Positions 21,113 through 21,205 of a stretch of 32,012 nucleotides of DNA are shown here, piece after piece. Position numbers and translations under genes: made by a program. The notes beneath the pieces were generated by a model that made no database searches, had not been told where the DNA came from, and worked only from the letters and a program-made list of their open reading frames with translations. The DNA comes from Escherichia coli (lineage in GTDB: Bacteria; Pseudomonadota; Gammaproteobacteria; Enterobacterales; Enterobacteriaceae), in assembly GCF_003334385.1 (NCBI RefSeq), contig NZ_QOWN01000052.1; one strand, written 5' to 3'. Every line of letters begins with the position of its first letter. The stretch's first letter is position 1.

Positions 21113-21153
21113 TGTGTCAGGCAGCGTTCCGCGATGACGGGGCGTTGCCTTTT

Positions 21154-21175
21154 CGGCTTCTCAGGCGAGAAGCCG
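21154..21175 (+). terminator. Hairpin in the ygcU-ygcS spacer (possible intra-operon attenuator)
   Basis: CGGCTTCTC aggc GAGAAGCCG perfect 9 bp stem followed by TTCTTATT. Confidence 0.3.
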
Positions 21176-21205
21176 TTCTTATTACCGGACAATGAAGGGG
21201 TAAAG

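Follow-up and report, generated by a model that had tools for sequence, protein, structure and literature searches.

A conserved terminator-type hairpin in the ygcU–ygcS spacer of Escherichia coli

The short spacer between ygcU and ygcS contains a GC-rich hairpin, referred to here as hairpin 2, which on balance appears to act as a constitutive, partial intrinsic (Rho-independent) terminator after ygcU, and which would also cap the 3′ end of the ygcWU message. It is located in the 32,012-nucleotide stretch of E. coli DNA that we analyzed (the window; contig NZ_QOWN01000052.1), inside an uncharacterized sugar-type catabolic operon. A hairpin of this kind is routine by itself; as a partial terminator it would fix the ratio of the dehydrogenase genes (ygcW and ygcU) to ygcS, ygcR, and ygcQ. 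We regard it as an ordinary finding, and the leaders of ygcW and yqcE, which lie upstream and are described below, as the more interesting result.

The ygcU–ygcS spacer and its hairpins

The window is E. coli K-12 DNA; over the tested stretch it is 100% identical to MG1655 and DH10B, and it runs antiparallel to MG1655; the MG1655 position is 2919076 minus the window coordinate. The features with which we are concerned are the following, in window coordinates.

18499–18584, minus strand: yqcE leader, with box ATTACT, loop AGAGACCTGAGAAA, terminator, and T8
18702–18787, plus strand: ygcW leader, with box AGTTACC (18714–18720), loop AGAGATAATGAGAAA, terminator (18731–18770), and T9
18803–19588, plus strand: ygcW
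19658–21112, plus strand: ygcU
21110–21112, plus strand: ygcU stop codon, TAA
21119–21150, plus strand: hairpin 1, a predicted fold, with TTTT after it (to 21153)
21134–21136, plus strand: upstream in-frame ATG, situated in the hairpin 1 loop; PGAP start of ygcS (469-aa model)
21154–21175, plus strand: hairpin 2, with a perfect 9-bp stem and a 4-nt loop (MG1655 2897922–2897901, minus strand)
21176–21183, plus strand: tail of hairpin 2, TTCTTATT, a T-rich, interrupted U tract
21194–21208, plus strand: conserved Shine–Dalgarno (SD) sequence GAAGGGG (21194–21200) and ATG, the K-12 start of ygcS
21206–22543, plus strand: ygcS, from the K-12 ATG at 21206
22521–23300, plus strand: ygcR
to 24157, plus strand: the point by which ygcR and ygcQ end
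24305–24880, minus strand: ygcP, encoding a GlpP-family protein, the presumed antiterminator for the ygcW and yqcE leaders

The spacer occupies exactly positions 21113–21205 (93 bp) and is the sole structured gap within the five-gene unit: the ygcW–ygcU gap is unstructured, and ygcS, ygcR, and ygcQ overlap one another. Upstream of ygcW lie the divergent genes yqcE–ygcE, and downstream of ygcQ the convergent genes ygcP–ygcO–ygcN. The whole cluster is syntenic across the Enterobacteriaceae and much of the Enterobacterales. Our search of the literature on ygcU, ygcS, and ygcP found no functional study of how the cluster is regulated. In the convergent ygcQ–ygcP spacer (24158–24304) we noticed REP-like palindromes, GCCGGATG... 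and GCCTGATAAGACGCG...CGCATCAGGC.

The initial annotation had described a perfect, GC-rich stem of 9 bp with a 4-nt loop in the ygcU–ygcS spacer, and this is precisely what is found at 21154–21175, where CGGCTTCTC (21154–21162) and GAGAAGCCG (21167–21175) enclose the loop AGGC. Its distance from the ygcS ribosome-binding site, given as 25 bp, requires correction: 18 nt separate the end of the stem from the SD sequence, and 30 nt separate it from the ATG. Six of the nine pairs are G-C, and the hairpin has a free energy of −14.9 kcal/mol when folded alone. Its orientation is sense with respect to both ygcU and ygcS, and it is the best-scoring site of a terminator scan in the region. Its tail has six T residues in eight positions, is broken at positions 3 and 6, and satisfies the rule of the terminator scan. 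When 60–200 nt of upstream context were included in the folding, eight of the nine pairs retained a probability of at least 0.995, from which it follows that nothing competes with the fold. A riboswitch-like alternative fold was considered and rejected, the pair probability being about 1 in every context tested.

Between the ygcU stop codon and hairpin 2 lies a further stem-loop, hairpin 1, which was absent from the initial annotation. It consists of GGCAGCGTTCCG-CGATGA-CGGGGCGTTGCC plus an A-U closing pair, with a stem of 12–13 bp (including G-U pairs), and is followed by TTTT. Together, hairpins 1 and 2 give the spacer a folding z-score of −4.4 relative to shuffled sequences. Defining a perfect hairpin as one with a stem of at least 9 bp and a loop of 3–8 nt, we recorded seven distinct perfect hairpins in the 32-kb window (12 nested entries), as compared with 0.84 ± 0.89 entries expected from dinucleotide shuffles. 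The remaining six, among them the terminator of the ygcW leader, are located in intergenic stretches other than this spacer.

Conservation of hairpin 2 and the start of ygcS

A scan for YgcU, with one genome taken per species, yielded 67 loci for comparison. Hairpin 2 is the same recognizable element, CGGCTTCYC-N4-5-GRGAAGCCG, in 27 Enterobacteriaceae spacers, among which 90.5% of its pair cells are paired, versus 40–59% with the 3′ partners slid. Changes on both sides are seen in five pairs (14 cells), a result reached by no shuffle; examples are C-G to U-A at the base of the stem, U-A to C-G, and C-G/U-G/U-A. The covariation suggested by these sequences is nonetheless modest, since they are related and few independent events lie behind the counts. 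The 8 nt that follow the stem contain a median of six T residues in the 27 spacers (range 3–7), against a background T fraction of 0.26. Tails of canonical appearance are seen in C. sedlakii (CTTTTTTT) and Pluralibacter (TTTTTTGC), and the weakest, with three T residues in eight, in C. koseri and Enterobacter 10-1. The spacer in most genera is 52–62 bp long and is made up of the stop codon, the hairpin, the T tail, and the ribosome-binding site. Unrelated GC hairpins are located 0–12 nt after the ygcU stop codon in Cedecea, Buttiauxella, Limnobaculum, Budvicia, Rahnella, and Serratia, and genera that have no ygcS downstream, ygcU being the last gene, also bear a hairpin after ygcU.

Hairpin 1 is present only in the spacers of Escherichia loci, its position in other genera being occupied by ERIC-like inserts or by nothing. 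ERIC-like elements are found there in Klebsiella spallanzanii, Raoultella, and Enterobacter 10-1, and another palindromic insert in C. koseri (insert-bearing spacers L006, L007, L010, and L055). The presence of these inserts indicates that the stretch from the ygcU stop codon to hairpin 2 tolerates insertions, and we regard it as an insertion hot spot. The stretch from hairpin 2 to the ribosome-binding site varies little between genera. Some strains carry an IS1 element 27 bp ahead of the ygcU stop codon, with a GAATACGGG target duplication (E. coli EC5, L071, positions 604–1380 of the locus); the element, also seen in hit H17, separates ygcU from the spacer. In EC5 and in O157:H7 FRIK2069 (L070), ygcS is frameshifted. 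Two contigs, L002 and L026, carry unexpected labels: one from a ‘Planctomycetota’ MAG is 100% identical to E. coli K-12 over ygcU and the spacer, and one from ‘Chryseobacterium sp. 18061’ contains the entire enterobacterial ygc cluster. The L002 and L026 assemblies are probably contaminated or mislabeled.

Nearly invariant as well is the segment 21184–21205, TTACCGGAC(A/C)ATGAAGGGGTA(G/A)A, which precedes the ATG of ygcS. It is shared by Escherichia, Citrobacter, Klebsiella, Raoultella, Superficieibacter, and Yokenella and is absent from the Pluralibacter group. The segment includes a three-codon mini-ORF, ATG AAG GGG TAA (21192–21203), and two GGA motifs, and its conservation, judged from the sequences compared, is greater than an SD sequence alone would need.

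The start of ygcS bears on whether hairpin 2 lies in coding sequence. RefSeq/PGAP annotation in many E. coli genomes (UM146, for example) begins the gene at 21134 (469 aa), in conflict with the K-12 start at 21206 (445 aa). The reading frame is indeed open from 21134, and were translation to begin there, hairpin 2 would be an incidental feature of the coding sequence. We consider this extremely improbable. The ATG at 21134 is confined to Escherichia, where it falls within the hairpin 1 loop. Among 26 other loci, 17 lack an earlier in-frame start and 5 have a stop codon three codons upstream. A purine-rich SD sequence and the N-terminus M(N/S)xSPVRMDDLP are conserved at 21206 in 32 of 32 loci. 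Moreover, the stem region, read in the frame of 21134, changes from SGEK to STGK between Escherichia lineages with retention of the RNA pairing. We reject an N-terminal extension of YgcS from 21134 on this comparative evidence. The K-12 position, 21206, is the credible start on comparison of the loci, and the widespread automatic annotation of YgcS as a 469-aa protein is probably too long.

Leader switches upstream of ygcW and yqcE

The yqcE–ygcW intergenic region has strong terminators directly before the ribosome-binding sites of both genes, and that in the ygcW leader is part of a switch located 2.4 kb upstream of hairpin 2. The architecture of these leaders recurs in approximately 100 leaders of the Enterobacterales and, among Firmicutes, in several loci with a ygcP homologue (L053, L066, and L067), and the switches thus span Proteobacteria to Firmicutes. 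The shared parts are a box of 6–7 nt (AGTTACY or ATTACT), a loop of the form (N0-4)GAGM-N3-4-GAGAAA, and the complement of the box in the 5′ arm of the terminator; the remainder is a variable upper stem followed by TTRCYTTTCTC and T8–9. Pair counts favor the existence of both alternative helices: the terminator stem is 98.5% paired, and the alternative helix between box and arm is 89% paired, versus 15–54% when slid. Two box/arm pairs switch between G-C and A-U and between U-A and C-G, in 31 and 24 sequences, respectively, counts that reflect few independent events. A covariance model of the leaders, R1, gives the two E. coli leaders scores of 84 and 83 bits. The switch, which is present in two copies per E. 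coli genome and is about 66 nt long as counted from promoters inferred by eye, has no match in Rfam and no annotation in RefSeq.

Each leader has a CRP-type site, TGTGATTACGATCACA (18663–18678) and TGTGAGAGTAATCACG (18606–18621), about 41 bp upstream of its inferred start; these are accompanied by the extended −10-like sequences TGcTAAAAA and TGtTATTTA, the promoter positions having been assigned by eye. PhyloScan places yqcE/ygcW among its top CRP predictions (PMC1794230). Term-seq analysis of cells grown in LB (Adams et al. 2021, PMC7815308, supplementary file 3) detected a 3′ end in the ygcW leader at MG1655 position 2900311, minus strand (window position 18765, 38 nt before the start; 40,640 reads, intrinsic-terminator score 15.8) and one in the yqcE leader at 2900556, plus strand (window position 18520, 36 nt before the start; 1,557 reads, intrinsic-terminator score 11.4), both without Rho dependence. 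Both ends fall within the 3′ arm of the long stem, 11–13 nt short of where the U tract finishes, which suggests that the RNA is trimmed as far as the GC-rich upper stem.

Antitermination of the GlpP type has been characterized in Bacillus. YgcP matches the Pfam family G3P_antiterm (PF04309) over its full length (E = 1.6e-62), is related to the Listeria GlpP structure (PDB 3KTS; E = 1.2e-27), and is presumed to be the antiterminator for the ygcW and yqcE leaders. An established target of GlpP is the 5′ untranslated region of B. subtilis glpD, which contains GGUC, CUGAGAUGAGGAGA, and, within the terminator arm, GACC (PMC9604022, supplement), and which is a conditional terminator under the control of GlpP and glycerol-3-phosphate (PMC9604022). 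The likeness to the ygc cluster is twofold: that cluster has a gene for a GlpP-family protein, and its ygcW and yqcE leaders show the glpD layout of a short box, the loop xGAGAUxAxGAGAxA, and a complement of the box in the 5′ arm of the terminator. Hairpin 2, in contrast, lacks both the box and the GAGA...GAGAAA loop, and it resembles a plain terminator. It appears that E. coli and other members of the Enterobacterales run the ygc cluster by GlpP-type, protein-mediated antitermination, and the function of YgcP, its RNA target, and the inducer of the cluster are now directly testable.

Two further observations concern these terminators. In Limnobaculum eriocheiris (L035, 3074–3173) the yqcE–ygcW region consists of a single bidirectional terminator (A9-hairpin-T9) without upstream boxes, perhaps a degenerate form of the two leaders. 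Meanwhile, the stem of hairpin 2, which in most genera is GGCTTCCC/GGGAAGCC, has in common with the upper stem of the ygcW leader terminator (18741–18761) the sequence CTTCCC...GGGAAG, a resemblance that could be due either to chance or to common origin.

Possible functions of hairpin 2

The initial annotation had proposed that hairpin 2 attenuates transcription or serves as an RNA stability or processing element. What emerges from the comparison is a selected, terminator-type hairpin on the sense strand, with a conserved stem, compensatory changes, and a T-rich tail; termination at the site and a contribution to RNA stability are predicted. In the mechanism that we favor, transcripts would begin at the CRP-type ygcW promoter and would pass the ygcW leader terminator, presumably only with antitermination by YgcP. 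Past ygcU, hairpin 2 would stop a fraction of the polymerases, generating a ygcWU mRNA of approximately 2.5 kb with a hairpin-capped 3′ end, and the remaining polymerases would continue into the transporter gene ygcS and the ETF genes ygcR and ygcQ. The predicted outcome is a fixed step-down in the expression of the downstream genes. In Escherichia, hairpin 1 and its TTTT would add up to a tandem element with hairpin 2. Hairpin 2 may, in addition, stabilize the ygcWU RNA that lies upstream of it. That termination would be partial is suggested by the layout of the spacer: because there is no room in it for a promoter, transcription of ygcSRQ must pass through hairpin 2, so that any expression of these genes would require the hairpin to be leaky.

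Intra-operon terminators that set gene ratios are known in E. coli, examples being the terminator between rpsU-dnaG and rpoD and the rplL–rpoB attenuator. Like these, hairpin 2 is a GC hairpin in the sense orientation with a U-rich tail, located in a short gap between codirectional genes, and no promoter follows it, so that the distal genes would rely on read-through. It differs from them in that its termination is predicted, in that its U tract is interrupted in E. coli, and in that hairpin 1 precedes it in Escherichia. Another class of intercistronic element is exemplified by the REP elements of the malE–malF gap, which are stabilizer stem-loops. Hairpin 2 is similarly a stable stem-loop at the 3′ end of an upstream cistron and could block 3′ exonucleases, leading to differential decay, but it is present in a single copy per genome, has no REP consensus, and has an oriented, T-rich tail.

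The possibility that the spacer is a REP, BIME, or ERIC repeat was rejected on the basis of copy number: across 5,093 E. coli genomes, the spacer has a median of one location each. No further copies of the spacer were found in 1.1 Mb of loci. Diverged short copies could escape both searches. No Rfam match overlaps the spacer even at E values up to 10. The sole match at gathering level in the whole window is the sok antitoxin RNA (113 bits, 31620–31777), which corresponds to the annotated sokX locus. As for published 3′ ends, the Term-seq table (Adams et al. 2021, PMC7815308) has none at ygcS or ygcU, a silence that is uninformative because transcription was stopped at the ygcW leader terminator in the conditions used, and the SMRT-Cappable-seq and TERMITe supplements have no 3′-end or transcription-unit entry for the site of hairpin 2.

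Two other readings concern how much termination takes place. Hairpin 2 might be an element of RNA stability or processing only, without appreciably stopping polymerase, which we judge to be rather unlikely, although it is the chief competitor of the mechanism that we favor. Following an endonucleolytic cut in the AU-rich stretch downstream, the hairpin would be a barrier to 3′-to-5′ exonucleases, and ygcWU RNA would outlive ygcSRQ RNA. Conservation is stricter for the stem than for the T tract, whose richness falls to three T residues in eight, and a pure stability element would fit this pattern equally well; the E. coli tail is interrupted (UUCUUAUU), and three of the hairpins in distant genera (L043, L047, and L051) have no T tract. 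A pure exonuclease barrier, however, requires neither a T tail nor a fixed orientation, whereas the 27 spacers are consistently enriched in T directly after the stem and several of the tails are canonical. At the other extreme, hairpin 2 could be a full-stop terminator of a ygcWU operon, with ygcSRQ transcribed from a promoter of their own. This we hold to be very unlikely, even though a terminator-like hairpin follows ygcU in Erwinia, Pantoea, and some Serratia, where that gene is the last, and even though YgcR protein has been detected on two-dimensional gels of glucose-grown cells (PMC2646832). The distance from the hairpin to the ribosome-binding site in short-spacer genera (17–32 nt) is too short for a promoter, a scan for consensus promoters near the spacer found no promoter-like site, and a promoter within ygcU would still depend on read-through of hairpin 2. 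Nor does the 3′ end of ygcU have conserved synonymous sites: synonymous diversity over its last 45 codons is at or above the gene mean, without a dip, and hence no embedded conserved element is apparent. A synonymous dip at codons 392–417 of ygcU corresponds to a run of two-fold-degenerate residues and contains no promoter-like sequence. Genes resembling ygcS that are located elsewhere in Erwinia, Pantoea, and Serratia have ordinary promoter regions and no such hairpin; they are probably paralogues and, as such, are uninformative with respect to hairpin 2.

It is also conceivable, if quite improbable, that hairpin 2 is a regulated checkpoint at which read-through is conditional, under the control either of YgcP or of the ribosome that terminates at the end of ygcU. 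Control by YgcP is suggested by the presence in the cluster of a gene for a GlpP-family antiterminator. The covariance model of the YgcP-type leaders, however, has no match in the spacer at E = 10 with filters off, which places hairpin 2 outside the leader family, and matches no ygcU–ygcS spacer in the 67 loci; in addition, the GAGAAG of the 3′ arm in K-12 is GGGAAG in most genera. We conclude that hairpin 2 is ruled out as a YgcP/GlpP-type site. Under control by the ribosome, which would apply to most genera, a ribosome at the ygcU stop codon would cover the 5′ arm of the hairpin, and translation of ygcU would gate transcription of ygcSRQ. In short-spacer genera the core stem begins 8–10 nt after the stop codon, which, given the size of the ribosome footprint, would be within reach of a terminating ribosome. 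The stop codon is, however, 41 nt from the stem in Escherichia, and ERIC-like inserts intervene in four genera, indicating that any coupling to the ribosome is dispensable. Both versions must also contend with the absence of a competing alternative fold for hairpin 2. Doubtful to a similar degree is a two-step scheme in which YgcP-mediated antitermination at the ygcW leader is followed by gated read-through of hairpin 2 into ygcS and the ETF genes; the gate at the second step could be a ribosome that terminates at the ygcU stop codon close by, or an unrecognized factor acting on the nearly invariant TTACCGGACAATGAAGGGGTA that follows hairpin 2.

Finally, YgcR, the product of one of the genes downstream of hairpin 2, is reported to be among the proteins that are still made after induction of MazF, and to be required for mazEF-mediated death following DNA damage (PMC2646832). 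The mazEF genes are located in the same window as ygcR.
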